In this document: in pieces, positions 1,938 through 36,714 of the stretch
How the letters are laid out: each line of letters starts with the position of its first letter
Numbering within the stretch: the first letter of the stretch is position 1
Assembly (NCBI GenBank): GCA_902580765.1
Contig: CACHLW010000001.1
Location: 41,143 to 105,142 of the forward strand
From: an uncultured Alphaproteobacteria bacterium
GTDB lineage: Bacteria; Pseudomonadota; Alphaproteobacteria; HIMB59; GCA-002718135
Direction of reading: 5' to 3'
Length of the DNA: 64,000 bases
The notes under the pieces: generated by a model
What the model was told of the DNA's origin: nothing
The model's input: the letters and a program-made list of their open reading frames with translations, nothing else
Databases searched by the model: none
Made by a program: the position numbers and the translations under genes

Positions 1938-2876
1938 ATGAGCCATTTATTTTATAAACCTGCTAAATCTAGATTACACAGAAGTGAATTGGCAGTTCCT
2001 GGCTCTAATCCAAAGATGTTTGAAAAAGCATTAAAATCAAATGCCGATTATATTTTCTTAGACCTAGAAGATGCAGTATCTCCAAATGATAAAATTGATG
2101 CAAGAAGAAATGTTATTAATGCAATAAAAGAATATAACTGGAAAGAAGAAGGTAAAACAATCTCTATAAGAATTAACGGTTTGGATACACACTATATGTA
2201 TCGTGATGTGATTGAAATTATAGAAGAGGTAGGTGATAGGGTTGATACATTATTAATTCCAAAAGTAGGCTCATCATCCGATGTATATATGGTTGATTGT
2301 ATGCTTAATCAAATTGAGCAAAATAAAAAATTTGAAAATAGAATAGGTTTAGAATGTTTAATTGAAACAGCACTAGGAATGTCTAATATTCAATCAATTG
2401 CAACATCAAGTTCAAGACTAGAAGCATTACATTTTGGAGTTGCAGATTATGCCGCAAGTATGCGAGCAAGAACTGTTGTCATAGGAGGTTTAAATCCTGA
2501 TTACCCTGGTGATCAATGGCATCATGGCTTATCAACTCTAGTAATGACCTGTAGATCATATGGCTTAAGAGCAATAGACGGACCTTTTGGTGATTTTAAT
2601 GACAAAAAAGGATATCTAGATGCTGCAAAAAGAGCTGCAGCAATTGGTTTTGAGGGTAAATGGGCAATACATCCATCGCAAATAGATTTAGCTAATGAAG
2701 TTTTTTCTCCACCCAAAGAAGAAATAGATAAAGCAAAAAAAATATTATTAGAATTAGAAAAAGCAGCTGCTGAAGGAAAGGGTGCTGCTCAGCTTGATGG
2801 AAGAATGATCGACGCCGCATCTGCTAGAATGGCTGAAAATATTGTAAATATAAATAAATTAATTGAGAGCAAGTAA
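1938..2876 (+). CDS. mcl: L-malyl-CoA/beta-methylmalyl-CoA lyase (HpcH/HpaI aldolase-CitE family)
   Basis: 312 aa. Long blocks match methylotroph Mcl as I recall it: RLHRSELAVPGSNP, FLDLEDAV, IRINGLDTHYMYRDV, LIETALGM, FGVADYAAS, FEGKWAIHPSQIDLANEVF. It lies directly upstream of mtkAB-like genes. Confidence 0.85.
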   Translation: MSHLFYKPAKSRLHRSELAVPGSNPKMFEKALKSNADYIFLDLEDAVSPNDKIDARRNVINAIKEYNWKEEGKTISIRINGLDTHYMYRDVIEIIEEVGDRVDTLLIPKVGSSSDVYMVDCMLNQIEQNKKFENRIGLECLIETALGMSNIQSIATSSSRLEALHFGVADYAASMRARTVVIGGLNPDYPGDQWHHGLSTLVMTCRSYGLRAIDGPFGDFNDKKGYLDAAKRAAAIGFEGKWAIHPSQIDLANEVFSPPKEEIDKAKKILLELEKAAAEGKGAAQLDGRMIDAASARMAENIVNINKLIESK

Positions 2877-4036
2877 TGGATATACACGAATATCAAGCAA
2901 AAAAAATATTGTCTGATTTTGGTGTTAAAATTCCGACTGGTGGTATTGTTTATAGTCCAGAAAATGCAGAAAACAAAGCAAGAGAAATTGGTGGTTCAAA
3001 ATGGGTTGTAAAAGCGCAAGTTCACTCAGGTGCTAGAGGTAAAGCGGGAGGAATTATAATATGTAATTCTCCGTTAGAAGTTGCTGATGCTACTGATAAA
3101 TTGTTAGGTAAAAAATTAATTACAAATCAAACTGGTCCAGAAGGTAAGATAATAAATAGAATTTATATTGAAGAAGCAACTGATATCAAACACGAATTAT
3201 ATTTAGGTTTAGTGTTTGATAGATCTTCAGAAAGTATAATGGTTGTAGCTTCAACAGAAGGTGGAATGAGTGTTGAAGAAATTTCAAAAGAAAAACCTGA
3301 AACAATTATACGATCAAAAATAGAAGTAGCAGTTGGTATTCAACAATTTCAAGCAAGAGAAATAGCTTTTGGTCTAGGAATTGAATCCAAATTGATCTCA
3401 AGAGCTGCAAATACAATTATAGGTTGTTATAAAGCTTTTAGTGAGCTTGATGCGACAATGGTTGAAGTTAACCCATTAGTTGTATCACACCAAGATGAAA
3501 TATTAGCATTAGATTGTAAAATGAGCTTTGATAATAATGCAATGTTTAGAAGAGATGAAATTGCAGAACTTAGAGATAAGACACAAGAAAATTCAAATGA
3601 AGTTTATGCTTCTGATAGAGGAATGAATTATGTAAGCTTAGATGGGAATATTGGTAATATTATTAATGGTGCAGGCTTAGCAATGGCTTCAATGGATATG
3701 ATAAAACTTGCTGGTGGCGAACCTGCTAATTTTTTAGATGTTGGTGGAGGTGCAACACCTGAAAAAATAGTTAAAGCTTTTAAATTAATCTCTATGGACA
3801 CAAAAGTTAAGGTTATATTAGTTAATATCTTTGCAGGTATTAATAGATGCGATTGGGTTGCAGAAGGAATTGTTCAAGCTTTATCAAAAATTGAAATTAA
3901 ACATCCGTTAGTTATACGTTTAGCTGGAACTAATGTCGAAAAGGGAAATGAAATTCTTAAAAAAAGCAATATTAATTACATTGAAGCATCAACTTTAGAA
4001 GATGCAGCAAATAAAGCAGTAAAGGCTCTTGGATAA
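2876..4036 (+). CDS. mtkA: Malate--CoA ligase (malate thiokinase) beta subunit, SucC-like ATP-grasp
   Basis: 386 aa. MDIHEYQAK..., the VHSGARGKAGG loop (MtkA-like GARGKAGG versus SucC GGRGKAGG), and GEPANFLDVGGGAT. The start overlaps the mcl stop (TAATG). Context with mcl favours mtkA over sucC. Confidence 0.75.
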   Translation: MDIHEYQAKKILSDFGVKIPTGGIVYSPENAENKAREIGGSKWVVKAQVHSGARGKAGGIIICNSPLEVADATDKLLGKKLITNQTGPEGKIINRIYIEEATDIKHELYLGLVFDRSSESIMVVASTEGGMSVEEISKEKPETIIRSKIEVAVGIQQFQAREIAFGLGIESKLISRAANTIIGCYKAFSELDATMVEVNPLVVSHQDEILALDCKMSFDNNAMFRRDEIAELRDKTQENSNEVYASDRGMNYVSLDGNIGNIINGAGLAMASMDMIKLAGGEPANFLDVGGGATPEKIVKAFKLISMDTKVKVILVNIFAGINRCDWVAEGIVQALSKIEIKHPLVIRLAGTNVEKGNEILKKSNINYIEASTLEDAANKAVKALG

Positions 4037-4038
4037 TC

Positions 4039-4935
4039 ATGTCTATAATCATTCACAAAAATACAAAGATTTTAGTCCAAGGTTTCACTGGAAAAATTGG
4101 AAGTTTTCATGCTGAAGAAATGATTAAGTATGGTTCTAACGTTGTTGGTGGAGTAACACCTGGTAAGGGTGGTATGACTCATTTAAATCTTCCTGTTTTT
4201 AATACTGTTAAAGAAGCTGTAGATCAAACAGGAGCATCAACATCAATTTTATTTGTCCCACCAGCCTTTGCAGCAGACTCAGCAATGGAAGCTGCTGATG
4301 CAGGTATTAAAACATGTGTGGCTATTACGGACGGTATTCCTTCTCATGATATGGTTAAAATAAAAAGATATATGAGGAGATATCCAAAAGATAAAAAAAT
4401 GGGATTAGTAGGTCCGAATTGTGCAGGAATAATTAGCCCTGGTAAATCTATGTTAGGTATTATGCCTGGTCATATTTACAAAGAAGGCAAAATAGGAATA
4501 GTTAGCAGATCTGGCACTTTGGGATATGAAGCTGCACAACAACTTAAAGATTTGGAAATTGGTGTTTCAACAAGTGTAGGTATAGGAGGCGATCCAATAA
4601 ATGGAAGTTCTTTTAGAGATATAATTGAAAAGTTTGAAAATGATGATGAAACTATTGCAGTTTTAATGATAGGTGAAATAGGTGGACCACAAGAAGTTGA
4701 AGCTGGACAATTTGCTAAAGAAAATATGAGTAAACCAGTAATTGCGTATATAGCAGGACTAACTGCACCCAAAGGTCGTGTGATGGGGCATGCTGGAGCA
4801 ATTGTTTCTGCTTATGGTGAAAGTGCAATAGAAAAAGTAGAGCTTCTTAAAGAGTGTGGAGTTACAATTTCCAAAAATCCTTCTGTAATGGGTGAGACTG
4901 TGAAAAAAGTATTAGTAGAAAATAATTTGAATTAA
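4039..4935 (+). CDS. mtkB: Malate--CoA ligase alpha subunit, SucD-like
   Basis: 298 aa. VQGFTGKIGSFH, GGVTPGKGG, the RYMRRYPKDKK insertion typical of MtkB as I recall it, SRSGTLGYEA, and GHAGAI with the phosphohistidine. It starts 2 nt after mtkA. Confidence 0.75.
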   Translation: MSIIIHKNTKILVQGFTGKIGSFHAEEMIKYGSNVVGGVTPGKGGMTHLNLPVFNTVKEAVDQTGASTSILFVPPAFAADSAMEAADAGIKTCVAITDGIPSHDMVKIKRYMRRYPKDKKMGLVGPNCAGIISPGKSMLGIMPGHIYKEGKIGIVSRSGTLGYEAAQQLKDLEIGVSTSVGIGGDPINGSSFRDIIEKFENDDETIAVLMIGEIGGPQEVEAGQFAKENMSKPVIAYIAGLTAPKGRVMGHAGAIVSAYGESAIEKVELLKECGVTISKNPSVMGETVKKVLVENNLN

Positions 4936-5143: not shown

Positions 5144-5707
5144 ATGAAATTATATCTTATTAGACACGCAGAGTCAGAAGCTAATGCAGCATCAGATTTA
5201 GATAATCCAACTTATTATTATGATGCAAGAATTACTAAAAGAGGAGTTGAGCAAGCAATAAAATTAAATAATAGAATTAAAAATCTTAAATTTGATAATT
5301 ATTTTTGCTCCCCCTTAACAAGAACATTAGAAACATTCTCTATTGTTTTTCCATCTAATAAACCTGTAATTGAACCATTAATAAGAGAACATTTGTACCA
5401 CTCATGTGATGTAGGAAGACAACCAAAAAAATTAAAAAAAGAATTTAATAATTTTGATTTTAAAAATTTAAATGATTTTTGGTGGAATAATAACAAACCT
5501 ATTAATGAAAAAAAAATTATACAAGAGTCCCACAATGATATTAAAATTAGATTAAGATCTTTTCTACTATCTATCAAAAACCTTAATTTACAAAAAATTG
5601 TATTAGTCAGTCATGGTACATTCTTAAGTCAAATAACTGAATATATGCTAGATAACTGTGAGGTATATGATTGTGAGTACAATGAGATATACGAAAAATT
5701 TTTTTAA
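5144..5707 (+). CDS. Histidine phosphatase (phosphoglycerate mutase-like) family protein
   Basis: The N-terminal LYLIRHAESEAN contains the RHG-type catalytic motif. A distal SHG motif (LVSHGTF) is present. 187 aa. Confidence 0.8.
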   Translation: MKLYLIRHAESEANAASDLDNPTYYYDARITKRGVEQAIKLNNRIKNLKFDNYFCSPLTRTLETFSIVFPSNKPVIEPLIREHLYHSCDVGRQPKKLKKEFNNFDFKNLNDFWWNNNKPINEKKIIQESHNDIKIRLRSFLLSIKNLNLQKIVLVSHGTFLSQITEYMLDNCEVYDCEYNEIYEKFF

Positions 5708-5730: not shown

Positions 5731-6498
5731 CTAAAACATCTCATTTATTATTTTATTTAATTTTTGAGTTACTCTATCAATTATTTTTTTTCCTATCTGT
5801 GCATTGGATTTTCTAGGATCTCCAATAATTCCACTTTTACTTAATTCTTTAGTTACCCAAGCTTTTTTAATATTTTTCTCATAAGAAATGGTTTTAGATG
5901 ATAAATAATCGGAGGATAATCTATGTTTAGAAATTTTAGATTGCCTAACTAGGTTTGGAAATAAATATAACATAATAGATGTTTCAAATTCTCCACCGTG
6001 ATAACCAAAGTCTTTTTCTTTACTTGATATAATTCCTTTAAATTGATCAAATAAAAAATATGTGCCTTTTACTATGTTTATCTTAAATTCTGATTTCAAT
6101 TCTTTAGCAATAATATCTATATGGCTAATTTGTCCACCATGACTATTTAAAAGTAATATATTTTTAAATTTCAATTTACATACATTTTCTAATATTGACA
6201 AAGAGTGCGATATAAATTCCAATGAATCAATACTTATTGTTCCATCAAAATCTGTATGTTCAGAAGCTGAACCAAAATATATTTCAGGCATAATTAAATA
6301 TTTATTTGAATTATATTTTTTATTGAATTCTAATAATATTCCTTCAAGAATTTTTTTATCAGTATTTAATGGAAGATGTGGACCGTGTTGCTCTATTGAT
6401 GAAAATGGGAAAATTAAAACTGTTTTTCTATTTATTTTTTTAATTTCATTTGTTGTTAATTCTTCCCAAAAGTTTGTTAGCATTTTTTTATTATACAT
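5731..6498 (-). CDS. Creatininase-fold amidohydrolase family protein
   Basis: 255 aa. The metal and active-site blocks look intact: SSIEQHGPHLPLNTD, LNSHGGQ, HGGEFETS. Confidence 0.8.
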   Translation of the reverse strand: MYNKKMLTNFWEELTTNEIKKINRKTVLIFPFSSIEQHGPHLPLNTDKKILEGILLEFNKKYNSNKYLIMPEIYFGSASEHTDFDGTISIDSLEFISHSLSILENVCKLKFKNILLLNSHGGQISHIDIIAKELKSEFKINIVKGTYFLFDQFKGIISSKEKDFGYHGGEFETSIMLYLFPNLVRQSKISKHRLSSDYLSSKTISYEKNIKKAWVTKELSKSGIIGDPRKSNAQIGKKIIDRVTQKLNKIINEMF

Positions 6499-6511
6499 TT
6501 ATAAGTAAATT

Positions 6512-7471
6512 ATGAAATCTTATTCTTTATGGATTGATAAAAAAAAACAAGCTAAAATTTATCAAAAAAAACTTGTTTACAATAAAAATAACAAAACAGT
6601 TTTAGTTAAAACTATTTACTCAGGTATTAGCAAGGGAACTGAAAAATTAATTTCATCTAAAAGCGTAAGTGAGGATCAATTTGAATTAATGAAAGCCCCT
6701 TTTCAAGAGGGTTCTTTTAATTTACCTATAAAATATGGCTATATAAATGTTGGGAATATTATCGATGGTCCAAGGGAATATATAAATAAAAAAATATTTA
6801 GTCTTTATCCTCATCAGGATTTATATGAAATTTCTATTCAAAATTTAATTTTTTTACCTAAAGGAAATTTGAGAAAATTTGTTCTAACTGCAAATATGGA
6901 AACAGCTATTAATATCTTTTGGGACGCTCAATCTAAAAGTAATAACAAAATTCTAATTGTAGGGCTTGGCTCTGTAGGATTATTAACTGCATTTTTTTTT
7001 AAAATTAATGGATATAAAAATGTTTATGTTTATGATAATAATAAAAATAAAAGAAAAATTGCCAATTATTTAGGATTAAATTTTATTGATATAAGAAAGA
7101 TTGAGAAAATTGATGTAGCAATAAATACTACAGCTAATTATAAAGTTTTAAATTCTCTAATGGAAAAATTATCTATCGAAGGAAAAATAGTAGAAGCTAG
7201 TTGGTATGGTAAAAATAAAGGAGAAGTTGCCTTAGGCGGGTATTTTCATTCTAAAAGATTAAAAATTATTAGTTCACAGGTATCTAAAATACCAAAATAC
7301 ATGAAAAATAAATATGATTTTGAGGGGAGATTAAAATTAGCAATTAAATCTTTAAAAAATTCAAAATTAGAAAAATTAATTACTAGTGAAAGTAATTTTT
7401 TTGATTTAGAAAAAGATTACTATAAAATCCTTAAAAATAAAGATACAATAATGCATCTAATTAAATATTAA
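6512..7471 (+). CDS. MDR-superfamily (BchC-like) zinc-type alcohol dehydrogenase family protein
   Basis: 319 aa. It has the SGISKGTE motif found in the BchC-like MDR subgroup in place of GxCxxD, and a Rossmann motif ILIVGLGSVGLL. Confidence 0.7.
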   Translation: MKSYSLWIDKKKQAKIYQKKLVYNKNNKTVLVKTIYSGISKGTEKLISSKSVSEDQFELMKAPFQEGSFNLPIKYGYINVGNIIDGPREYINKKIFSLYPHQDLYEISIQNLIFLPKGNLRKFVLTANMETAINIFWDAQSKSNNKILIVGLGSVGLLTAFFFKINGYKNVYVYDNNKNKRKIANYLGLNFIDIRKIEKIDVAINTTANYKVLNSLMEKLSIEGKIVEASWYGKNKGEVALGGYFHSKRLKIISSQVSKIPKYMKNKYDFEGRLKLAIKSLKNSKLEKLITSESNFFDLEKDYYKILKNKDTIMHLIKY

Positions 7472-7473
7472 TT

Positions 7474-7872
7474 ATGTATTCTATAAAAGTAAGAGAAAAT
7501 ATTCTAATAGCTCATTCATTACCTGGAGAAGTATTTGGACCAGCCCAAAATATGCATGGAGCTACATATTTAGTAGATGCAGAATTTTTCACTGATAAAC
7601 TTAATAAATACAATATAATTATGGATTTAGGAATAGTGTCCACGACTTTAAAAGATATTCTTAAAATATATAATTATCAAAATTTAGATGAAATTGATGA
7701 ATTTAAGGGTAAAATTACCTCAACAGAGTTTTTAGCAGAGGATATCTGCAATAAGATCTTAAATAGACTAAGAAATGAATTCTCTCAAGATTATAAATCT
7801 TTAAAAAAAATTAAAATAACCTTGCAAGAATCAAATGTTGCATGGGCATCATATGAAAAAGAGGTTATCTAA
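7474..7872 (+). CDS. 6-pyruvoyl-tetrahydropterin synthase/QueD-fold (COG0720) protein, non-canonical active site
   Basis: 132 aa with the tunnel-fold pattern ...ILIAHSLPGEVFGPAQNMHGATYLVDAEF...MDLG...L.N.. The canonical C-x3-H-G-H reads A-x3-H-G-A here. Confidence 0.7.
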   Translation: MYSIKVRENILIAHSLPGEVFGPAQNMHGATYLVDAEFFTDKLNKYNIIMDLGIVSTTLKDILKIYNYQNLDEIDEFKGKITSTEFLAEDICNKILNRLRNEFSQDYKSLKKIKITLQESNVAWASYEKEVI

Positions 7873-8899
7873 AAATAAATCTGATATTTATTTTGTTTAT
7901 CCAGGAAACATTAATGCAAAAACTGGAGGATATATTTATGAAAAAAATATCCTAGAATATGCAAAGATAAGAGATATAAATATTAGACCAATTGCTCTAA
8001 GTGAAAATTATCCTTTTCCTACAAACAACGATATAAAATATTTTCTAAAAATTTTAGATAAAATTGATCCTGACTCTAAAATTATCATAGATGGATTAGT
8101 TTTAGAAGGAATGTATTCAATTTTTAAAAAATTACTTACTTATAATGTCATCGCGCTAATACATCATCCTTTATATCTTGAATTTAAAAGTCATAGGTCA
8201 AAAAAATTCTTACGATTAGAAAAAGAAAATTTCAAAAAAATAAATAAATTTATTGTGACCTCTAAAAATACAAAAAATTTATTAATAAATGATTTTAAGG
8301 TACTAAATAATAAAATTTCTGTAGTTGAACCTGGTATAGAAAGACTTGTAAAATATAATTTTAAAAATAATAGTAAAATTCATTTTTTAACATGTGGAAG
8401 TATAATAAATAGAAAAAATTATCTTTTTTTATTAAAAGTTTTAAAGCCTTTAGATAATTTTATTTTAGAAATTGTTGGTGATACTACAAGAGATATAAGT
8501 TATTACAAAAAACTCAAAAAATTTATTTCTAAAAATTCAATGAACAGAAAAATAATATTCCATGGTACTATTTCAGATACAAAATTAGCTAAATTATATT
8601 CTAAAACAGATTGTTACATTTCGGTAAGTAAATATGAAGGTTTTGGCATGTCTTTAGCAAATGCATTAATAATTAAAAAGCCAATTATAACCTTTTTCAC
8701 TAATACTATCTTAAATACAATTGGAAAAAAGGGTGTTATTTATTTCAAAAAATTTGAAGTAAATGATCTTAGAAATATAATTATTAAAAATATATTAAAT
8801 AAAAAAAATTTTAAAAAACTAAATATTGATATTCATAAAAATAAAAGATATCTTCTTACTCCTCTAGAGTCAGCTAAGAAATTTGTTAATTTAATTTAA
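7835..8899 (+). CDS. Glycosyltransferase (GT-B, group-1/GT4-like)
   Basis: The C-terminal half has ...VGDTT...LAKLYSKTDCYISVSKYEGFGMSLANALIIKKPII..., a GT4-like E-x7-E region whose second E is Asn here. A more likely start is ATG 7853 (MKKRLSK...), which still overlaps the upstream gene by 20 nt. Confidence 0.7.
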   Translation: MLHGHHMKKRLSKNKSDIYFVYPGNINAKTGGYIYEKNILEYAKIRDINIRPIALSENYPFPTNNDIKYFLKILDKIDPDSKIIIDGLVLEGMYSIFKKLLTYNVIALIHHPLYLEFKSHRSKKFLRLEKENFKKINKFIVTSKNTKNLLINDFKVLNNKISVVEPGIERLVKYNFKNNSKIHFLTCGSIINRKNYLFLLKVLKPLDNFILEIVGDTTRDISYYKKLKKFISKNSMNRKIIFHGTISDTKLAKLYSKTDCYISVSKYEGFGMSLANALIIKKPIITFFTNTILNTIGKKGVIYFKKFEVNDLRNIIIKNILNKKNFKKLNIDIHKNKRYLLTPLESAKKFVNLI

Positions 8900-8900
8900 T

Positions 8901-9689
8901 ATGCATGAATTTCAAAATAAATGGTTAAATCTTAGAGAAACTGTCGATAGGAATTCAAGAAATAAAAGAATACTATATTTAATTAATAAATTTTTTAAAA
9001 ATAAAAAAAATATTAGAATAGTTGACTTAGGTTCAGGTGCTGGATCTAATTATAGATTTCTTAAATCGAGATTATTAAATAATCAATATTGGTCTTTTGT
9101 AGATATATCACATCAATCAACAAATTATTTTAAAAAAAATATAAAATTATCATCTAAAATAAAAAAAACTAATTTTAAAATTGTTGATGTAATTAATAAT
9201 CTAGAAAAAATAAATCTTAATGATTATAATTTAGTTACAGGATCTGCTTTTTTAGATATTCTTCCAAAAACATGGTTTAAAAATTTTCATAAATTAAATG
9301 TTGATACAGAAATTGTCTACTTTGCCTTAAATTATAACGGTAATTTTAAATTTTTTCCAAAACACAAGGATGATAAAAAAATTCTTAATATTTTTAATAA
9401 AGATCAAAAATCTGACAAAGGAATAGGGGAAGTGGCCGTTGGACCAGATTGTACTGAATTAATAAATAAAGTATTTAAAAGGACTCACAAAACATATGTT
9501 TTAGACTCTACATGGGATGTTAGTAAAAATTATAAATTTCAAATTTATTTCTTAAATTTTTGTAGAGAAATTATTCAAAAAAATAAACTTAACTTTGATG
9601 ATTGGTTAAAATTTCGTTTAAAATGTATTAAAGAAAAAAATTCTAGATTTATTTTAAATAATACAGATTTTTTAGCTATTAAGAAATAA
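8901..9689 (+). CDS. Class-I SAM-dependent methyltransferase
   Basis: 262 aa. SAM motif I is IVDLGSGAGSN, and an acidic post-I residue (FVD) is present. It starts 1 nt after the glycosyltransferase. Confidence 0.65.
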   Translation: MHEFQNKWLNLRETVDRNSRNKRILYLINKFFKNKKNIRIVDLGSGAGSNYRFLKSRLLNNQYWSFVDISHQSTNYFKKNIKLSSKIKKTNFKIVDVINNLEKINLNDYNLVTGSAFLDILPKTWFKNFHKLNVDTEIVYFALNYNGNFKFFPKHKDDKKILNIFNKDQKSDKGIGEVAVGPDCTELINKVFKRTHKTYVLDSTWDVSKNYKFQIYFLNFCREIIQKNKLNFDDWLKFRLKCIKEKNSRFILNNTDFLAIKK

Positions 9690-10505
9690 ATTAACAATAA
9701 TTTCATTTTCTAATTCATTAAAATTATGTTTTGGTCTGATAGCTTTATTGAGATTTGAAATTTCTTTTAAATTTAATGAATTAATTCCGGAACCTATTAA
9801 TATTGGGGCAATCATAAATTGAAGAATATCAATATATTTATTATTTATTAATTCTGAAATAGTTTTTGATCCTCCCTCTACTAAAATATTTTTATATTTA
9901 AGTTTTTTTATTTGCGTAATTAAGTTTTTAGTAAAATTTTTTTCTTTTAACCTAATTATTATTGAATTATTTAATCTAATATTTTTATTACTTTTTGTAA
10001 AAATTATATTTTCATTACCGTCATTAAATATTTTATATTTGTTATTTAGTGAAAGACTGCCATCAATAATAATTCTTTTTGGATTTGTGCCCTTTATTTT
10101 TCTTGTTGTTAATAGGGGATCATCTTTTTTTATGGTATTTGAGCCTACAATAATTGCATCACTGATACTTCGTAAACAATGTAGGTAAATAATACTCTTG
10201 GGATTATTTATGTAATGTGAATTACCATTATTTAATGCAATTCTACCATCAATACTTTGTCCTATCTGAGCTATAACTAATTTTTTGTTTTTTTTTAATA
10301 TCGGGAAAAGGATATTTAAGATTGATTGATAAAATTTACTAATATTAATTTTAGATTCCAGATTATTATTTTTTATGTAAAAATTACTTTTTCTTTTTGA
10401 TGATAAAGAAATACTATTTTTTTTAACCAATAAATATAAATCACTATTCTTTTTAGAATTTTTTATAAAATCTAGTAAAATTCCTATATTTTTTGATGTA
10501 ATCAT
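9672..10505 (-). CDS. RibD C-terminal-domain (pyrimidine ribosyl reductase/DHFR-like) family protein, no deaminase domain
   Basis: 277 aa. ...IAQIGQSIDGRIA..., ...GSNTIKKDDPLLTTR... and ...ILVEGGSKTISELI... are RibD_C-type blocks. There is no CMP/dCMP deaminase zinc motif. The 3' end overlaps the methyltransferase by 18 nt (convergent). Confidence 0.7.
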   Translation of the reverse strand: MITSKNIGILLDFIKNSKKNSDLYLLVKKNSISLSSKRKSNFYIKNNNLESKINISKFYQSILNILFPILKKNKKLVIAQIGQSIDGRIALNNGNSHYINNPKSIIYLHCLRSISDAIIVGSNTIKKDDPLLTTRKIKGTNPKRIIIDGSLSLNNKYKIFNDGNENIIFTKSNKNIRLNNSIIIRLKEKNFTKNLITQIKKLKYKNILVEGGSKTISELINNKYIDILQFMIAPILIGSGINSLNLKEISNLNKAIRPKHNFNELENEIIVNLFLNS

Positions 10506-10541
10506 TTGTTTTTATTTCAATTATATCTATATAAAGTTTTC

Positions 10542-11663
10542 ATGAGTTTCAAATCTAATACAGGCACTATAATAGATAGGGCAATTAACGAACTCAGGAC
10601 CGGAAGACCCTTAATAATTCAGAATAACAAGGAATTTTGGATGTTCTTTAATATAGAGCATTCCCAAAGTAAAATTTTTAATCAATTCAATAAGCACTTA
10701 ATTGATGAAAAATATCTACTTATTACTAAACAAAAAGCTCAATCAATTTTTAATAAGAATATTAAAAGTAATATTTATTTTGAAATAAATCCCAAAACTG
10801 ATGTAAATCAAATAATAAATTTATTTGTCAACCCTCTTAGCAATAATAAAGTAATTAAATTTACCAATATTAAAAAATTCAAATCTAAAAATTTTCATAA
10901 TGTTTGTATTGATCTTTCCAAAAATGCTAAAATGATACCGTCGTTAGTTTTTAAAAAAATTAATAAAAAATATTACAAAAATATAAACGAATTTGGATAT
11001 AAGAATGGAATTTTAATATTTGACTACAAAGATTTATTGAAACAAAATGAATTAATTTGTGAAAGTATTAAATTAGTTTCCAGTGCAAAAGTTCCATTAC
11101 CAAAAAACGAAAATTCTAATTTTAAAATATTCAAATCATATATTGGATCTGATAAACATGTAGCGATAATTGTTAATCCAAAAAAAATAAATAAAAAATC
11201 TGTTAATTTAAGAATACATTCAGCTTGTTTTACAGGTGATATTTTTCATTCTTTAAAATGTGATTGTGGTGAGCAATTAAATCAATCAATCAATTACATG
11301 GTTAGAAATAATGGTGGAGTTATATTATATTTAGAACAAGAGGGTAGGGGAATAGGATTAGCTAATAAAATGAGAGCTTATTCTCTTCAAGCAAGGGGTA
11401 TGGATACAATAGACGCCGATCATAATATTGGTTTTTTAGATGATGAAAGAGATTTTAATATTGCAGCTAGAATACTGAAATTATTAAAAATAAATAAAGT
11501 TAATCTCATTACAAATAATAAAAATAAAATTAATTCTATTAAGAAAGCTGGAATTAAAGTCGAAAATCAAATAAATACAAAGCCAACATTGAATAAATTC
11601 AATAAAAATTATTTTAAAACAAGAGTTAAAAAAGCTGGGTACGGTCTTAAACTAGTAGTATAA
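10542..11663 (+). CDS. GTP cyclohydrolase II-like protein with a degenerate RibB-like N-terminal domain
   Basis: The C-terminal ~170 aa read RIHSACFTGDIFHSLKCDCG (Zn Cys triad with E. coli spacing), LYLEQEGRGIGLANKMRAYSLQ and DERDF. The N-terminal ~200 aa start like DHBP synthase (IDRAINELRTGRPLII) but lack its acidic DDEDRENEGD motif. I moved the start from the track's TTG 10506 to ATG 10542 (MSFKSN...). Confidence 0.8.
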   Translation: MSFKSNTGTIIDRAINELRTGRPLIIQNNKEFWMFFNIEHSQSKIFNQFNKHLIDEKYLLITKQKAQSIFNKNIKSNIYFEINPKTDVNQIINLFVNPLSNNKVIKFTNIKKFKSKNFHNVCIDLSKNAKMIPSLVFKKINKKYYKNINEFGYKNGILIFDYKDLLKQNELICESIKLVSSAKVPLPKNENSNFKIFKSYIGSDKHVAIIVNPKKINKKSVNLRIHSACFTGDIFHSLKCDCGEQLNQSINYMVRNNGGVILYLEQEGRGIGLANKMRAYSLQARGMDTIDADHNIGFLDDERDFNIAARILKLLKINKVNLITNNKNKINSIKKAGIKVENQINTKPTLNKFNKNYFKTRVKKAGYGLKLVV

Positions 11664-11665
11664 TT

Positions 11666-12109
11666 ATGAAAAAAATTCCTAAGATAAAACTTCAATTAAC
11701 AAACGATAATGAGTTTGATTCCTCTAAATTAAAGAATAAAACAGTTTTATTCTTTTACCCTAAGGCGTTAACTGGTGGATGCTCAGTAGAAGTTGCAGAT
11801 TTTCAGAAATACTTAACAAAATTTAATAAAATTGGCTTTGATGTAATAGGAGCTTCTAAAGATCCTGTTGATCGTAATAAAAAATTTTCAGATAAGTATA
11901 AATTGAAATACCCACTTGGTTCAGATGAAGGAAAAAATTGTGATAAACTTGGTATTTGGATAGAAAAATCTATGTATGGTAGAAAATATTTTGGGATAGA
12001 TAGATCTACATTTGTAATCGATAAATATGGAAAAATTCTAAATTCTTGGAATAAAGTGAAAGTTAAAGGTCATGTTGAAGAAGTTTATAATTTTTGTAAA
12101 GATCAGTAA
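11666..12109 (+). CDS. bcp: Peroxiredoxin, Bcp/PrxQ type
   Basis: 147 aa. The P-x3-T-x2-C peroxidatic motif is YPKALTGGC. A ...GAS.D... block is present. It starts 2 nt after the upstream gene. Confidence 0.8.
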   Translation: MKKIPKIKLQLTNDNEFDSSKLKNKTVLFFYPKALTGGCSVEVADFQKYLTKFNKIGFDVIGASKDPVDRNKKFSDKYKLKYPLGSDEGKNCDKLGIWIEKSMYGRKYFGIDRSTFVIDKYGKILNSWNKVKVKGHVEEVYNFCKDQ

Positions 12110-12113
12110 ATTT

Positions 12114-13007
12114 TTATTTAATTTTACCTATTTCTTTTTCTCTTTTAATTACAAATAAACCACTTAACGTAATAATTATTGCACCAATAATCATATTATA
12201 AGTTGGAGTTTCACCTAGTATTAAATACCCAAAAATCATACCAAATATAATTACACTGTATCTTGCAGAGGCGGTTAATGAGAGTGGTGCATAAAAAACT
12301 GTTAATACTGAAAATAAATATCCGAATAAAACAAATATACTAGAAACAAGAATATAATTTACATCTTCACCGCTTACTTGATAACCAAAAATAATTGAAC
12401 CCAACCCTGCAAACCCAGTAATCAACAATGCTGTCACAAATGTAATTTCAACACTATTTGATTTAGTAGCTAAACTTTTTGTAGCAATATCTCTAATAGT
12501 TAAAAAAATAGCAGCTAAAATTGGTAACACTAAAAGATAATTAAATTGAAAATTTTGTGGATTTACAACTACTAGCACACCTAAAAAACCAATAATAACT
12601 GCACACCATCTTCTTATTCCAACTTTCTCTCCTAAAAAAAGAAAAGCAAATATTGTGACAAAGAAAGGATTAGTCATTAAAAGTGTATAAACCTCAGATA
12701 TTGGAAGTAATATTAAACCAACTAAAAAAAATAATGCTGTTAAAACTTCATACAAACCTCTTATATGAAAACTTTTGATTGATAGTATTTTAATTAAATT
12801 TTTTTTTTCGAAAAAAACTAAATATAAACCTAATAAACTTGATGTAACTAAACCTCTTAAAAAAATTACAGAATATAATGAATTGTCATCACCTATATTT
12901 TTTACAACAAGTTTGACATAACTATCATTTATAGAGAATGATAATTGGCCAGCCATCATAAAAAGTACACCTATCGTCCCAACTGAAAATAAAATCTTGC
13001 TTTTCAT
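12114..13007 (-). CDS. DMT-superfamily (EamA) transporter
   Basis: 297 aa with ~10 TM segments. Mid-protein motif FLGEKVGIRRWCAVIIGFLGVLVVVNP. Confidence 0.85.
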   Translation of the reverse strand: MKSKILFSVGTIGVLFMMAGQLSFSINDSYVKLVVKNIGDDNSLYSVIFLRGLVTSSLLGLYLVFFEKKNLIKILSIKSFHIRGLYEVLTALFFLVGLILLPISEVYTLLMTNPFFVTIFAFLFLGEKVGIRRWCAVIIGFLGVLVVVNPQNFQFNYLLVLPILAAIFLTIRDIATKSLATKSNSVEITFVTALLITGFAGLGSIIFGYQVSGEDVNYILVSSIFVLFGYLFSVLTVFYAPLSLTASARYSVIIFGMIFGYLILGETPTYNMIIGAIIITLSGLFVIKREKEIGKIK

Positions 13008-34200: not shown

Positions 34201-34623
34201 ATTAAAATCCCTGTTGAAATTTATATACCTGAAGATTTTATTAACGATGTTGATCTAAGACTTTCCATTTATAAAAGAATATCAAATATAAATAATAAAA
34301 AAGAAATTGAAGAGATTAAAATAGAATTAATCGATAGGTTTGGTAAATTGCCTAAACAATTAATTAACCTACTAAAATTAGTAGAAATTAAAATCATTTG
34401 TTTAAAAAATAACATTGAAAAGTTTGAATTTAGCAGAAAAGGCATTTTAATTAGTTTTTTTCAAAATCAACCAAAAAATCCAGAAAAATTATTAGAACTT
34501 TCATTATCAAATAATAATTCTTTAATATTAAGACCTGATCAAAAAATTTTTTATGATTTTGGTGGTAATTTAATTAATGACAGGTTTGAATTATCTAAAA
34601 ATGTCATTAATTTAATTAAATAA
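31246..34623 (+). CDS. mfd: Transcription-repair coupling factor
   Basis: 1125 aa. A UvrB-homology N-terminus, an RNAP-interaction domain, helicase motifs GDVAFGKTEV, YDEEQKLG, LSATPIPRT, LYQLKGRVGRS, and a TRG motif region. The start overlaps sdhE by 11 nt. Confidence 0.95.
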   Translation: MTNKNTIGPSIHNVEPFFISQFYQNSNKSILYIGKDEREISSMEEKIKWLLPNVEILLFKSWDQIPYDNVSPSKEVQIERLKTLKILSNSDAKRIILTTINSITQKIIPKSIINSQLFKISKKQKFKLEDLINNLVILGFQRTSLVRDKSEFSVRGSILDIFPNDRSKPIRIDFFDEEIETIFEFDPITQKRLKEINSDLEFNIVNELILNEDNLNLFRKNFREIFPEYRNSQVYNLFSEKIIPSGGEQFIPLFYDNLETLFDYIEEYKILLNDEFNNIFDNRLENINDFYLARKNNKESFFLSPEYFYLSKEIFKKYLKNTEHFYFNTFDKNNHINIDVNIIHNLSSIKKEIDFSFINQFLKTNSKDNIIYICCRSKGSLERVSKILENNLSLNLNDVANFNHSLPDNILLTILDIEESFKLNKYIFINEKSLFGYFFNTQISKSRKQTIFFEELNKLSIDSILVHSEYGLCKFNNIRKIELNDSIHECLELEFFENQKLFLPVENLSYVSKYSDDTDGNIILDKLGASHWQKRKADAKKKIRDAAKKLISIASKRLQSQSYEINTNIPEYDKFVSTFPYVETDDQLNAIQDVINDFSKMIPSDRLIVGDVAFGKTEVILRAIFLAAKSNLQSVVLVPTTILSRQHFINFKKRLSIFGINISEISRLVSLKEKKEIFEKCNAGNIDVLVGTHALLNDKLKFKKLGLIVYDEEQKLGTIQKEKFKEIAPKAHCISLSATPIPRTLSMSLSGIRDLSLILTAPFERMAVRTYVSPFDSLTITEAIKREIYGRKNGVYFVVPRKKDLPFVEQFLNDNLPEIKYVITHGQLSPKLLESRISKFYNQEVPLMLSTNIIENGLDLPHVNTIIVYRSNIFSLAALYQLKGRVGRSSKRGYAYITYKESELKDNGRKRLSIINSSDHLGAGFNIASQDLDLRGGGSVIGEEQSGFIKEIGTELYHQMLEEEINLQKSKINLDFIKKDIYQPIIKIPVEIYIPEDFINDVDLRLSIYKRISNINNKKEIEEIKIELIDRFGKLPKQLINLLKLVEIKIICLKNNIEKFEFSRKGILISFFQNQPKNPEKLLELSLSNNNSLILRPDQKIFYDFGGNLINDRFELSKNVINLIK

Positions 34624-35717
34624 TGTTTAAAATTATAATCATATTTAATTTTTTTATTTTTTTATTTTTTAATAAAAATGTTTTATCTTTAGACAACAAA
34701 TATAAGCTTGAAATTTTAAAATCTAATTTAAGTTCCCCTTGGAGTTTAACATTTATAAGCAATAATCAAATTTTAATTAGTGAAAAAACTGGTAAAATTA
34801 AATTATTTGATATTTTAAGTAATAAAATTACTGAGATAGATCATACCTTAAATGTAATTAGGGATAAAAATTCACAAGGTGGTCTTTTAGACATTTACTT
34901 TTATAATAATCAAGTTTTTATATCTTACTCTGAAAAAATTGGTGATAAATTATTTAGTCCTTCAACAACATCTATTGCAAAAGCAGATTTAGATTTAAAT
35001 TTCTTAAATTTTGAAAACATTTTTAGAGCTAATCCACCTATTAGATCACCTTATCACTTTGGTTCGAGAATAGCTATTCATGATGATTATTTATACGCAT
35101 CTGTAGGTGAAAGAGGAAAAGGAATGATAGCTCAAGATGCTAATCAACATCCTGGAAGTATCATCCGAATTAAATTAGATGGAACTTCTCCTAAAGATAA
35201 TCCTCATTACATCTCACAAGAAACATGGTTACCCGAAATATATCAAATCGGTGTTAGAAATCCACAAGGAATGTCTATTTCTCCTTTTGATAATAAAATT
35301 TATATTAGTAATCACGGAGCAAAAGGTGGCGATTGGTTTGGTGAAGTTAAAAAGGGTGAAAATTATGGTTGGAAAATTTTAGGTTGGGGTGGAACTAATT
35401 ATGATAATTCCAAAATTGGTCCTAAATGGTTACCTGGTTTTACAAAAGCAATTCATTACTGGGTGCCATCAATTGCAGTTAGCGCAATCACAATATATGA
35501 TGGAAATGAATTTCCAGAATTTAAAGGATTAGCACTTATAACATCTTTAAAAGATCAATCTCTACGCTCACTAGATTTTTCAAATTTAGATAATGTGAAA
35601 GAACATATTGTTTTTAAAAAAGAAATAGGAAGAATAAGAGATATTAAAATTCATCCAGTGAGTGGTAAAATATTTTTATTAGCACAAGATAAATTATGGT
35701 TATTTGAAAAAAAATAA
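34623..35717 (+). CDS. PQQ-dependent (soluble) sugar dehydrogenase, YliI/sorbosone dehydrogenase-like beta-propeller
   Basis: 364 aa with a signal peptide. HPGSIIRIKLDGTSPKDNP, IGVRNPQGMS, GENYGWK. Confidence 0.8.
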   Translation: MFKIIIIFNFFIFLFFNKNVLSLDNKYKLEILKSNLSSPWSLTFISNNQILISEKTGKIKLFDILSNKITEIDHTLNVIRDKNSQGGLLDIYFYNNQVFISYSEKIGDKLFSPSTTSIAKADLDLNFLNFENIFRANPPIRSPYHFGSRIAIHDDYLYASVGERGKGMIAQDANQHPGSIIRIKLDGTSPKDNPHYISQETWLPEIYQIGVRNPQGMSISPFDNKIYISNHGAKGGDWFGEVKKGENYGWKILGWGGTNYDNSKIGPKWLPGFTKAIHYWVPSIAVSAITIYDGNEFPEFKGLALITSLKDQSLRSLDFSNLDNVKEHIVFKKEIGRIRDIKIHPVSGKIFLLAQDKLWLFEKK

Positions 35718-35763
35718 TTTTAATGAGTGTTGAGAAATATTCTTTTTAATTTATACATACAAT

Positions 35764-35880
35764 ATGTTTGAATTTTTAGCGTTTTTAGTTGGTGTTATGA
35801 TTATGGGACCAATAGTGTATATTTTTTTTTTAGTTCAAGATTTAAAAAAAAGGATTGATAAGCTTGAAAATAAAAATTAA
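35764..35880 (+). CDS. Possible 38-aa single-TM small protein (below the ORF-track size cut-off)
   Basis: ATG 35764 to TAA 35878-35880. MFEFLAFLVGVMIMGPIVYIFFLVQDLKKRIDKLENKN has one TM segment followed by a charged helical tail. Confidence 0.35.
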   Translation: MFEFLAFLVGVMIMGPIVYIFFLVQDLKKRIDKLENKN

Positions 35881-35886
35881 TTTTTA

Positions 35887-36714
35887 ATGCATAAAAATAT
35901 TTTTTTGGCTTCTTATCCTAAATCTGGAAATACTTGGCTGAGGTCTATTATTGGAAATTTTTATAATTTTGATAAAGATTTTAGCCTCAATGATTTAAAA
36001 TTAATACCTTTACTATCAATTAAAAAACATTTTAGTGAATTTGAAAATAAAATTTATACAAATAATAATGAGTTACATTTTGATTGGATTTCACAAAATA
36101 TTATTAAATGTCAAAAAATATTAAACAATAAAGTAAATCATCTGAATATATTTAAAACTCATAGTGCAAGACATAAAAATTTTACAAATGAAACAGTAAA
36201 TGCAGGTTTTATTTATATAGTTAGAGATCCTAGAGACATAATAGTTTCTCTTAAAAATTTTTCAGGTAAAGAAATTGATAAAACTATTGATGAGTTTCTT
36301 TTTTCAAAAAGTTTAATGATTACAACTAATGGAGCGCAAGAATTACTTTCAACTTGGGAACTTAATGTTCAATCCTGGTTAAATTATAATAGTGTTCCTA
36401 GATTGATCATAAAGTATGAAGATTTAAAATTAAATCCAAAAGAAATTATATTAAATATTACGAAATTTCTTAATAAAATACACAGATTAAATATAAACTT
36501 AAGTGACCAAGACATTGACAAAATAATAGAAAATACAAATTTTACTAATTTAAGAAATTTAGAAGATAAAAATGGTTTTGATGAAGCTACAAAACATTCT
36601 AAATTTTTCAGATCAGGCACATCTAATCAATGGAAAGATATATTATCTAATTCACAAGCCAAGCTTATTGAAAAAAATCTAAAATCATTAATGAAGTATT
36701 TTAATTATATTTAG
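35887..36714 (+). CDS. PAPS-dependent sulfotransferase-domain protein
   Basis: 275 aa. 5'-PSB loop SYPKSGNTWLRS, catalytic-His region FKTHSA, and 3'-PB motif YIVRDPRDIIVS. Confidence 0.85.
   Translation: MHKNIFLASYPKSGNTWLRSIIGNFYNFDKDFSLNDLKLIPLLSIKKHFSEFENKIYTNNNELHFDWISQNIIKCQKILNNKVNHLNIFKTHSARHKNFTNETVNAGFIYIVRDPRDIIVSLKNFSGKEIDKTIDEFLFSKSLMITTNGAQELLSTWELNVQSWLNYNSVPRLIIKYEDLKLNPKEIILNITKFLNKIHRLNINLSDQDIDKIIENTNFTNLRNLEDKNGFDEATKHSKFFRSGTSNQWKDILSNSQAKLIEKNLKSLMKYFNYI

Follow-up and report, generated by a model that had tools for sequence, protein, structure and literature searches.

The DNA discussed here is a stretch of 64,000 nucleotides from an uncultured alphaproteobacterium (assembly GCA_902580765.1, contig CACHLW010000001.1, positions 41,143 to 105,142 of the forward strand); we refer to the whole of it as “the window,” and all coordinates below count from its first letter. 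At 5731-11663 lie seven adjacent genes, among them those for a GTP cyclohydrolase II (GCH II), a RibD_C-type reductase, and a tunnel-fold (T-fold) protein of the PTPS family. We argue that this block is probably the SAR11 version of a conserved orphan cluster, of the PTPS-IV or SCO6650-6655 type, which diverts GTP to a glycosylated and methylated product of the pyrimidine or pterin type. Clusters of this type have been noticed before, their product is unassigned in the literature that we searched, and they fit no characterized pathway.

The seven-gene block

All seven open reading frames (ORFs) are present, at the coordinates, on the strands, and with the divergent gaps of 13 and 36 nt described in the original prediction, which had been made from the DNA letters alone. 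They are:

5731..6498, minus strand: metal amidohydrolase of the creatininase fold, accessory to the cluster (full-length match to Pfam Creatininase, 2.7e-55)
6512..7471, plus strand: atypical MDR-superfamily NAD(P) dehydrogenase, BchC-like or polyol-dehydrogenase-like (weak ADH_zinc_N and Glu_dehyd_C; bchC 8e-14)
7474..7872, plus strand: PTPS-IV T-fold protein (Pfam PTPS 8.9e-21; 3D7J 1.9e-33)
7835..8899, plus strand: GT4 glycosyltransferase, GT-B, retaining type (Glycos_transf_1 5.8e-19)
8901..9689, plus strand: class I S-adenosylmethionine (SAM)-dependent methyltransferase, small-molecule type (AlphaFold model and Foldseek)
9672..10505, minus strand: stand-alone RibD_C-type pyrimidine-nucleotide reductase (RibD_C 3e-31)
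10542..11663, plus strand: PRK08815-type GCH II (GTP_cyclohydro2 7.3e-49; NF006456 1e-78)

The genes are closely packed. The creatininase and MDR genes diverge across 6499-6511, and the RibD_C and GCH II genes across 10506-10541. On the plus strand, 2 nt separate MDR from PTPS and 1 nt separates the glycosyltransferase from the methyltransferase, with a 38-nt overlap between PTPS and glycosyltransferase; the methyltransferase and RibD_C genes are convergent, their 3' ends overlapping by 18 nt. We infer a division into three transcription units; scans of the block for promoters and terminators gave a signal no higher than background. In the profile searches, the creatininase, PTPS, glycosyltransferase, RibD_C (without deaminase), and GCH II assignments of the original prediction clear their Pfam thresholds, and the remaining two are taken up below.

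The PTPS-IV protein and its Streptomyces counterpart

Active PTPS and QueD enzymes (PTPS-I to PTPS-III) have three zinc-binding His residues, a catalytic Cys or Glu, and an Asp-His dyad. In Escherichia coli QueD we take Cys27 to be the catalytic residue and His33 the third zinc ligand, alongside the Asp-His dyad and a ring-binding Glu. When the window protein is aligned with QueD, Cys27 and His33 are each replaced by Ala and DHH by NYQ, and the ring-binding Glu is kept. Judged by these residues, the protein would not qualify as a catalytically active PTPS or QueD of any of the three types. Its sole match among solved structures is 3D7J, “Uncharacterized protein SCO6650” of Streptomyces coelicolor (1.9e-33, ~55% identity); no canonical PTPS or QueD structure was matched at E<=1 in this PDB search.

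The window protein carries EVFGPAQNMHGA, and FGPAQ..HGA is found in 66/66 homologs from clusters of this kind. FGPAQ is the signature of PTPS-IV, replacing the CxxxHGH, CxxxxxHGH, or ExxHGH motifs, and PTPS-IV neighborhoods contain PF00925 (GCH II) and PF01872 (RibD_C) (PMC5445326). In the window both families lie no more than 3 kb away, and related loci often have them too. It is because of this signature, together with the 3D7J match, that we regard the block as the probable SAR11 form of the SCO6650-SCO6655-type orphan cluster.

Spoonamore and colleagues reportedly found in 2008 that SCO6650 is devoid of zinc, of a catalytic triad, and of PTPS activity but keeps its pterin-binding residues; in 2006 they are said to have found that the GCH II homolog SCO6655 releases a formylated pyrimidine because a Met replaces a Tyr. 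Our full-text literature search found no paper that assigns a product to a PTPS-IV or SCO6650-6655-type cluster. The earlier view that this gene combination has no characterized product therefore stands, although the combination itself was already on record as the PTPS-IV/SCO6650-6655 type.

GTP cyclohydrolase II and the creatininase homolog

For the GCH II gene, the ATG at 10542 (373 aa) matches the gene calls of related genomes; the frame is also open from a TTG at 10506. In the 385-aa translation from that TTG, the GTP_cyclohydro2 domain occupies residues 193-356, and NF006456/PRK08815 matches over its full length (1e-78; the Agrobacterium ortholog exceeds the NF006456 cutoff). The catalytic C-terminal domain is preceded by an N-terminal extension of ~180 residues that is not recognizably DHBP synthase: no DHBP_synthase Pfam match was obtained at E<=0.01, and bifunctional models align only from ~residue 135-190, far below their cutoffs. 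The E. coli RibA positions that we checked are identical (13/13) in the window protein and in 39 proteobacterial cluster homologs, including the zinc ligands C54, C65, and C67, Y105, R128, and the phosphate-binding Arg/Lys; as far as alignment can tell, the catalytic residue set is intact.

A Tyr at the Tyr105/Tyr120 switch presumably marks a self-deformylating GCH II, and a non-Tyr residue (Met) the FAPy-releasing SCO6655 type, a distinction that we take from the 2006 Spoonamore work. The window GCH II has Tyr at this position, and none of the proteobacterial copies has lost Tyr105, whether or not a creatininase gene lies beside it. In Streptomyces the switch residue is Met (S. fungicidicus) or Leu (a metagenome-assembled genome, MAG), each copy having an adjacent creatininase gene.

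The creatininase fold of the protein encoded at 5731..6498 is, on its profile matches, certain. PDB creatininases match it at 1e-10 to 1e-12, and in NCBIfam it scores best against MftE (105 bits) and creatininase (81 bits), without reaching the cutoff of either. ArfB is the archaeal creatininase-fold formamidase for the formylated pyrimidine intermediate, and the original prediction had drawn on this analogy. The analogy is possible, but because the SAR11 GCH II keeps the Tyr switch an ArfB-type deformylase role is not required, and the ArfB model scores 30.7 bits against a cutoff of 180. We also tried the stronger proposal, that the SAR11 GCH II releases a formylated product on which the creatininase acts as an ArfB-type deformylase; with Tyr105 kept, it is not supported. 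For riboflavin synthesis, S. meliloti and Brucella depend on another member of the creatininase family, the AFRPP formamidase BrbF (SMc02977; PMC9478397).

Reductase, dehydrogenase, glycosyltransferase, and methyltransferase

The RibD_C match covers residues 77-244 (3e-31; 109 bits vs a cutoff of 24). Deaminase zinc motifs are absent from the protein, TIGR00326 aligning only from model position 108; TIGR01508, the archaeal DARP reductase, matches at 1.2e-26, and RibD, MjaRED, and Rib7-type reductases in the PDB match at 6e-18 to 1e-5.

The assignment of the next enzyme as a BchC-like MDR dehydrogenase holds in part. Searched against the PDB, the family profile matches polyol-type MDRs (butanediol, iditol, idonate, galactitol-1-P, and sorbitol dehydrogenases, 1e-11 to 1e-8) in the Rossmann half only, but no curated threshold is reached: ADH_zinc_N (5e-5) and TIGR01202 bchC (8e-14) both fall below theirs, and there is no ADH_N match. 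GxGxxG is conserved, and S40, G42, T43, E44, Y75, G76, Y77, P100, and H101 are invariant. By alignment the usual Cys/His/Glu zinc ligands are missing, and such ligands are not among the invariant residues.

The glycosyltransferase has further Pfam matches to Glyco_trans_1_4 (3e-13) and Glyco_transf_4 (2e-6), public records of the cluster call it “glycosyltransferase family 4 protein,” and outside SAR11 the cluster GT4 shows similarity at the level of MshA/BshA. Although the methyltransferase is weak by sequence (Pfam E ~1e-3), its AlphaFold2 model has a pLDDT of 92.9, and Foldseek retrieves methyltransferases at probability 1.0 (TM 0.43-0.64), phosphoethanolamine and histamine N-methyltransferases among them. 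The SAM motif D42-x-G44-x-G46 is invariant, and NCBI names the homologs “class I SAM-dependent methyltransferase.” At the level of the structural model, the prediction of a class I SAM methyltransferase at 8901..9689 is thus confirmed.

Conservation in SAR11 and beyond

Three SAR11 lineages, with MDR identities of ~96%, 70%, and 61%, have the seven genes in identical order and orientation, and the creatininase gene adjoins the cluster in all of the SAR11 loci (21 examined). The most distant lineage carries the block in a wholly different neighborhood; because its flanks are unrelated, the seven genes appear to move as a unit.

The MDR family comprises 883 clusters (50% identity) at E<=1e-10, and a scan of one genome per GTDB species found at least 599 MDR-encoding stretches. 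Partner genes were counted within a few kb in the best 61 non-SAR11 loci, which were selected by the MDR gene alone: 60 have a PTPS-like gene, 55 a methyltransferase, 52 a GT4, 46 RibD_C, 33 GCH II, and 13 a creatininase. Hosts include Rhizobium, Agrobacterium, Martelella, Aureimonas, Rhodobacteraceae, Halomonas/Vreelandella, Thioalkalivibrio, Marinobacter, Granulosicoccus, Acidobacteriota, and Streptomyces. The set of MDR, PTPS, GT4, and methyltransferase with RibD_C and GCH II is found in Alpha- and Gammaproteobacteria, Acidobacteriota, and Streptomyces. On accessory plasmids of Agrobacterium and Methylosinus, these GCH II and RibD_C families accompany the other four genes. The core cluster is spread over at least three bacterial phyla and the haloarchaea, and the adjacency of its members is far above chance. 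Co-occurrence of these families in other genomes, on which the original prediction had staked its case, is therefore seen both in the 61 loci and in cross-phylum records.

Gene fusions provide an independent linkage of cluster members. RibD_C is fused to MDR in one representative protein (P0206, 648 aa), and in Vreelandella/Halomonas the GT4 and class I methyltransferase form a single ORF (locus L049, 11393-13327).

Public plasmid records name the cluster genes generically, as “GTP cyclohydrolase II RibA,” “zinc-binding alcohol dehydrogenase,” “6-carboxytetrahydropterin synthase,” “glycosyltransferase family 4,” “class I SAM-dependent methyltransferase,” and “RibD family protein.” Similarly, PGAP calls PTPS-IV proteins “6-carboxytetrahydropterin synthase,” with a queuosine Gene Ontology term, and the cluster cyclohydrolase “RibA.” In light of the gene context and of the catalytic residues that are absent, these names are probably misleading for pathway reconstruction.

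The GTP entry step in haloarchaea

An operon on a Haloarcula halophila replicon (NZ_CP119560) encodes a Gfo/Idh/MocA oxidoreductase, a CDP-alcohol phosphatidyltransferase, a GTP cyclohydrolase III (GCH III), an MDR, a PTPS-like protein, and a class I methyltransferase, with a divergent GT4 gene next to it. The cyclohydrolase (Pfam GCH_III 6.6e-81; L090, 7205-7987) stands where bacteria have GCH II, and on its profile match this is a non-orthologous replacement of the GTP-opening enzyme. GCH III would carry out the same first chemical step, and of all the contextual evidence for GTP as the starting compound we consider this the strongest. In the Haloarcula T-fold protein an HxH pair (EIHSHHY) replaces FGPAQ..HGA, and a C-terminal VAWASYE motif is common to both forms.

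Selection and genomic setting

All seven genes are under purifying selection, with dN/dS of 0.01-0.29 against three relatives. The most constrained are PTPS (0.01-0.09) and GCH II (0.02-0.06); the creatininase gene lies at 0.07-0.29. Between SAR11 lineages, the glycosyltransferase and methyltransferase are 50-63% identical versus 69-86% for GCH II. The nearest genomes are single-cell and metagenome-assembled Pelagibacteraceae or “uncultured Alphaproteobacteria,” at 93-97% protein identity.

The AT-rich window has a GC content of ~25%, with a minimum of 19.7% at 8-10 kb. This minimum (8000-10000) coincides with the glycosyltransferase and methyltransferase genes, the fastest-evolving members of the block. 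The remaining window genes are housekeeping genes (sodB, uvrA, ssb, gyrA, coaD, recG, mfd, tmk, holB, metG, tatD, secDF, and yajC), and the block therefore appears to lie in the conserved core genome and not on an island. A horizontally acquired island or hypervariable region, which the GC dip might have suggested, was rejected in view of the housekeeping flanks, conserved synteny, and low dN/dS.

A possible route from GTP

That the block is a dedicated, non-housekeeping cluster leading from GTP to a tailored metabolite, as originally proposed, is supported by the co-occurrence of its families, the fusions, the GCH III replacement, and the absence of rib, fol, and que genes from the window. 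The steps that follow are drawn from family membership, conserved residues, fusions, and gene context.

The PRK08815-type GCH II would open GTP to 2,5-diamino-6-ribosylamino-4(3H)-pyrimidinone 5'-phosphate. The creatininase-fold amidohydrolase would have an accessory part, either clearing a formylated intermediate, as BrbF and ArfB do, or hydrolyzing a later amide. The RibD_C reductase would convert the ribosyl to a ribityl chain and, because it has no deaminase, leave the 2-amino group in place. The polyol-dehydrogenase-like MDR may then re-oxidize a hydroxyl of the side chain; more speculatively, a ketone at C2' could condense with the 5-amino group to a dihydroneopterin-phosphate-like pterin, with no need for GTP cyclohydrolase I (GCH I). 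Such a ring closure following C2' oxidation appears chemically reasonable, and it would amount to a bypass of GCH I. The zinc-less PTPS-IV protein may bind the 2-amino-4-oxopyrimidine or pterin ring and take part in a transformation other than that of PTPS, after which the GT4 would add a sugar and the class I methyltransferase a methyl group. In most other lineages CDP-alcohol phosphatidyltransferase, flippase-like, and sulfatase-like proteins might finally couple the product to the membrane or envelope, the SAR11 locus carrying the soluble seven-gene core only.

Our most specific version of this scheme is a speculative one and, taken whole, rather unlikely: a pteridine formed without GCH I by spontaneous ring closure (or else a ribitylaminopyrimidine), glycosylated and methylated, which in most bacteria and in haloarchaea would become, by way of the CDP-alcohol phosphatidyltransferase, a GTP-derived lipid head group or envelope substituent of a new kind. 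In SAR11, the most abundant heterotroph of the sea, the soluble core would perhaps make a redox-active free compound, a suggestion prompted by the antioxidant-type genes next to the block in two lineages.

Weighing the alternatives

Several points weigh against the reading of the block as a GTP-diverting orphan cluster. The enzyme activities are predictions from sequence, and the product could be a pterin, a ribitylaminopyrimidine, or a compound of another class. Since SCO6650 reportedly has neither zinc nor triad nor activity, action on a pterin would follow only from the retained binding residues. With GCH II in 33/61 and creatininase in 13/61 of the non-SAR11 loci, the entry enzymes are less tightly linked than the core of MDR, PTPS, GT4, and methyltransferase. 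The AlphaFold model of the MDR is poor (pLDDT 60.7), its catalytic domain not being modeled. A role of PTPS-IV in archaeal F420 synthesis has been stated as unpublished work (Zallot 2016, PMC5041015); if general, it would imply a cofactor role rather than a new metabolite. Finally, the absence of rib genes covers the 64-kb window, and separate housekeeping ribA and ribD genes in SAR11 would have to lie elsewhere in the genome.

This last point also favors an improbable alternative, in which GCH II, the creatininase (of BrbF/ArfB type), and RibD_C are SAR11's own early riboflavin enzymes, the other four genes being unrelated or sharing intermediates. BrbF is a precedent for it (PMC9478397), and the NCBI model names the GCH II family “RibA.” However, the RibD_C protein is without a deaminase and the GCH II without a DHBP synthase domain, so that a riboflavin prototroph would still need other rib genes, and the window holds no deaminase, DHBP synthase, ribH, ribE, or other rib, fol, or que gene and no FMN riboswitch (Rfam finds two tRNAs only). 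The retained Tyr105 removes the need for a separate formamidase, the RibD_C-MDR fusion ties the reductase to non-riboflavin genes, and on the Agrobacterium and Methylosinus accessory plasmids both GCH II and RibD_C travel with the MDR, PTPS, GT4, and methyltransferase genes. We consider it still less probable, indeed very improbable, that PTPS-IV and its neighbors make or modify a deazaflavin- or flavin-type cofactor precursor (F420/FO), for example by supplying a missing pyrimidine deaminase step. GCH II and RibD_C would give a ribityl-diaminopyrimidine, which on the archaeal and fungal riboflavin route requires deamination, and the Zallot statement on archaeal PTPS-IV points the same way. 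Nevertheless, no CofG/H-, CofC-, CofD-, or CofE-like families are among the recurrent neighbors in 67 loci, for which reason we dismissed the F420 link, and FO/F420 synthesis offers no role for the constant partners GT4, methyltransferase, and CDP-alcohol transferase. The reported lack of a metal site in SCO6650 also speaks against a hydrolytic deaminase, and to our knowledge SAR11, Halomonas, and Rhizobiaceae are not F420 producers. Chance adjacency of unrelated genes deserves next to no credence. SAR11 genomes are extremely gene-dense, so that short gaps and overlaps mean little by themselves, and the promoter and terminator scans were uninformative; against this, gene order and content are kept across phyla and in different neighborhoods, and fusions exist.

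The alternative that we take most seriously, as possible though doubtful, is that clusters of this family ultimately make the head group of a phospholipid, or a substituent that such a lipid donates to the periplasm or envelope. A GTP-derived polyol-phosphate would be joined to CDP-diacylglycerol or CDP-archaeol by the CDP-alcohol phosphatidyltransferase, flipped by an MprF-like protein, and possibly transferred by a sulfatase-like protein, for example to periplasmic glucans, with SAR11 using unlinked genes or making a soluble precursor. Among the 61 non-SAR11 loci, genes for CDP-alcohol phosphatidyltransferase (CDP-OH_P_transf) occur in 37, LPG_synthase_TM in 29, FkbM methyltransferase in 28, sulfatase-like proteins in 22, and cytochrome b561 in 16, while MdoH adjoins in 17 and MdoG in 9. 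Most of the CDP-OH genes (32/37) lie <=300 bp from another cluster gene (MDR, GCH II, FkbM, flippase-like, or sulfatase-like). The membrane genes are often on the same strand as the cluster, and in Agrobacterium pAt (CP048471), Streptomyces, and Haloarcula they share its operon; membrane-linked loci noted are L088 (the Agrobacterium plasmid), L073, L029, L049, L074, L089, and L090. The CDP-alcohol transferase is pgsA-like (TIGR00560 4.8e-10) and the flippase domain MprF-like; neither the sulfatase-like nor the CDP-OH proteins found anything useful in the PDB, nor the sulfatase-like ones in NCBIfam. That membrane genes usually join the cluster outside SAR11 suggests a lipid head group or envelope substituent there, and the modeled methyltransferase resembles phospho-base N-methyltransferases, weakly (TM ~0.45). 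On the other side, CDP-alcohol transferase, flippase-like, and sulfatase-like genes are absent from the 64-kb window (tblastn gave chance matches at E>=0.7), and no membrane genes stand beside the block in 21/21 SAR11 loci. The Pfam score behind the sulfatase assignment does not reach the threshold, soluble phosphodiesters (di-myo-inositol phosphate, for one) are also products of CDP-alcohol transferases, and a lipid with a pterin or pyrimidine head group did not appear in our literature search, nor do we know of one. SAR11 may make a soluble compound only, or it may use unlinked membrane genes. The original idea of a self-contained small-molecule route may not hold generally, membrane lipid-type genes being part of the cluster in most other lineages. 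An aminopentanetetrol lipid head group, with ribitylamine released from the pyrimidine, was kept as speculation only: such lipids are reported from Methanomicrobiales, not from cluster-bearing taxa, with Aquificae suggested by the titles of papers only.

Comparison with known systems

Related Streptomyces loci resemble the SAR11 block in sharing MDR, GT4, class I methyltransferase, creatininase, and GCH II; RibD_C was seen in one of them, the MAG locus L074. They differ in that their RibA is short and has Met or Leu as the residue of the Tyr105 switch, whereas the SAR11 and 39 proteobacterial copies are long, PRK08815-type, and have Tyr; they also have CDP-alcohol transferase and flippase-like genes in the cluster, and the SAR11 locus has none.

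The early steps of archaeal and fungal riboflavin synthesis (the GCH III ArfA, ArfB, and ArfC/Rib7), together with BrbF, offer the same combination of GTP opening, creatininase-fold amidohydrolase, and RibD_C reductase acting before or without deamination. Unlike that pathway, the cluster is without deaminase, DHBP synthase, lumazine synthase, riboflavin synthase, and FMN riboswitch, and is tied to MDR, PTPS-IV, GT4, and methyltransferase genes.

Bacterial pterin glycosides, namely cyanobacterial biopterin glucoside and cyanopterin and the tepidopterin of Chlorobium, are made by GCH I, PTPS, a reductase, and a pteridine glycosyltransferase. In common with the cluster, these pathways combine, on a GTP-derived heterocycle, a T-fold enzyme with an NAD(P) oxidoreductase and a glycosyltransferase, and in cyanopterin with methylation as well; the cluster, however, is entered by GCH II and RibD_C, not GCH I, and its T-fold protein is without the Cys and third His.

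Toxoflavin and fervenulin clusters encode the GCH II ToxB, the RibD ToxE with a deaminase domain, the methyltransferase ToxA, and ToxC and ToxD. Here too a GCH II paralog, a RibD-type enzyme, and a SAM methyltransferase divert a riboflavin intermediate to a specialized product, but the present cluster has no ToxC or ToxD equivalent, and toxoflavin clusters are without PTPS-IV, MDR, and GT4.

In the logic of phosphatidylinositol, its mannosides, and phosphatidylglycerol, a polyol-phosphate is joined to CDP-diacylglycerol by a CDP-alcohol phosphatidyltransferase, and GT4 enzymes (PimA, MshA-like) follow. The non-SAR11 cluster likewise pairs a pgsA-like CDP-alcohol transferase with a GT4 and an MprF-like flippase domain; the presumed alcohol would, however, be GTP-derived, and the membrane genes are missing at the SAR11 locus.

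In faba bean, VC1, a RIBA-type GCH II, leads to the pyrimidine glucosides vicine and convicine (bioRxiv 10.1101/2020.02.26.966523). The likeness is that a duplicated GCH II feeds a glycosylated aminopyrimidine instead of riboflavin, which sets a precedent. This is a plant system, however, and T-fold, MDR, RibD_C-only, and methyltransferase partners are missing from it. In vicine and convicine synthesis, furthermore, the ribose does not undergo reduction but is removed.

SAR11 genomes are among the most streamlined, yet seven contiguous genes are kept here under strong purifying selection. With the product identified, the PTPS-IV subfamily and the PRK08815 “RibA” family would each gain a function, the old puzzle of S. 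coelicolor SCO6650-6655 would be explained, and riboflavin and queuosine pathway calls in metabolic models could be corrected; a pterin route or a class of GTP-derived envelope lipids that is new might also come to light. Among the experimentally tractable hosts of the full cluster are Agrobacterium (pAt), Methylosinus trichosporium OB3b (pOB3b1), Halomonas/Vreelandella, and Streptomyces.

Neighboring genes

Three genes next to the block are of uncertain membership:

5144..5707, plus strand: histidine-phosphatase-superfamily protein (His_Phos_1 2.8e-21)
11666..12109, plus strand: BCP/PrxQ-type peroxiredoxin (AhpC-TSA 9.8e-26; NF006960 thiol peroxidase 2e-30, below cutoff)
12114..13007, minus strand: EamA/DMT-family transporter (EamA 1.3e-20)

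All three are conserved beside the block in SAR11 groups A and A2 only, the histidine phosphatase gene being absent from group B and from other taxa; it is possible that this protein is a pathway phosphatase. The peroxiredoxin gene follows GCH II on the same strand after a gap of 2 nt. A search of the SAR11 literature for riboflavin, pterin, and cyclohydrolase found mention of phhB only.

In the 70%-identity SAR11 lineage (L002 and L004) an extra 156-aa ORF, at 7788-8258, lies between the histidine phosphatase and creatininase genes; it has no Pfam match and does not occur in the window. Two SAR11 lineages whose neighborhoods otherwise differ both have antioxidant-type genes beside the block, possibly by coincidence: in the window it is the peroxiredoxin gene, and in the distant lineage the flanks (L020, 8419-9117 and 15562-15969) encode a glutathione S-transferase and a CMD/AhpD-like protein. 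An OsmC gene lies near the Agrobacterium copy of the cluster.

Just upstream of the block, at 1938-4935, a gene of the HpcH/HpaI type (malyl-CoA lyase-like) precedes a two-subunit ATP-grasp/CoA-ligase pair resembling malate thiokinase or succinyl-CoA synthetase, an arrangement that is syntenic in related SAR11 genomes. Further away, at 34623-36714, a soluble glucose/sorbosone dehydrogenase gene (GSDH, 1.2e-75) is followed by one for a Sulfotransfer_1-family protein (1.9e-30).

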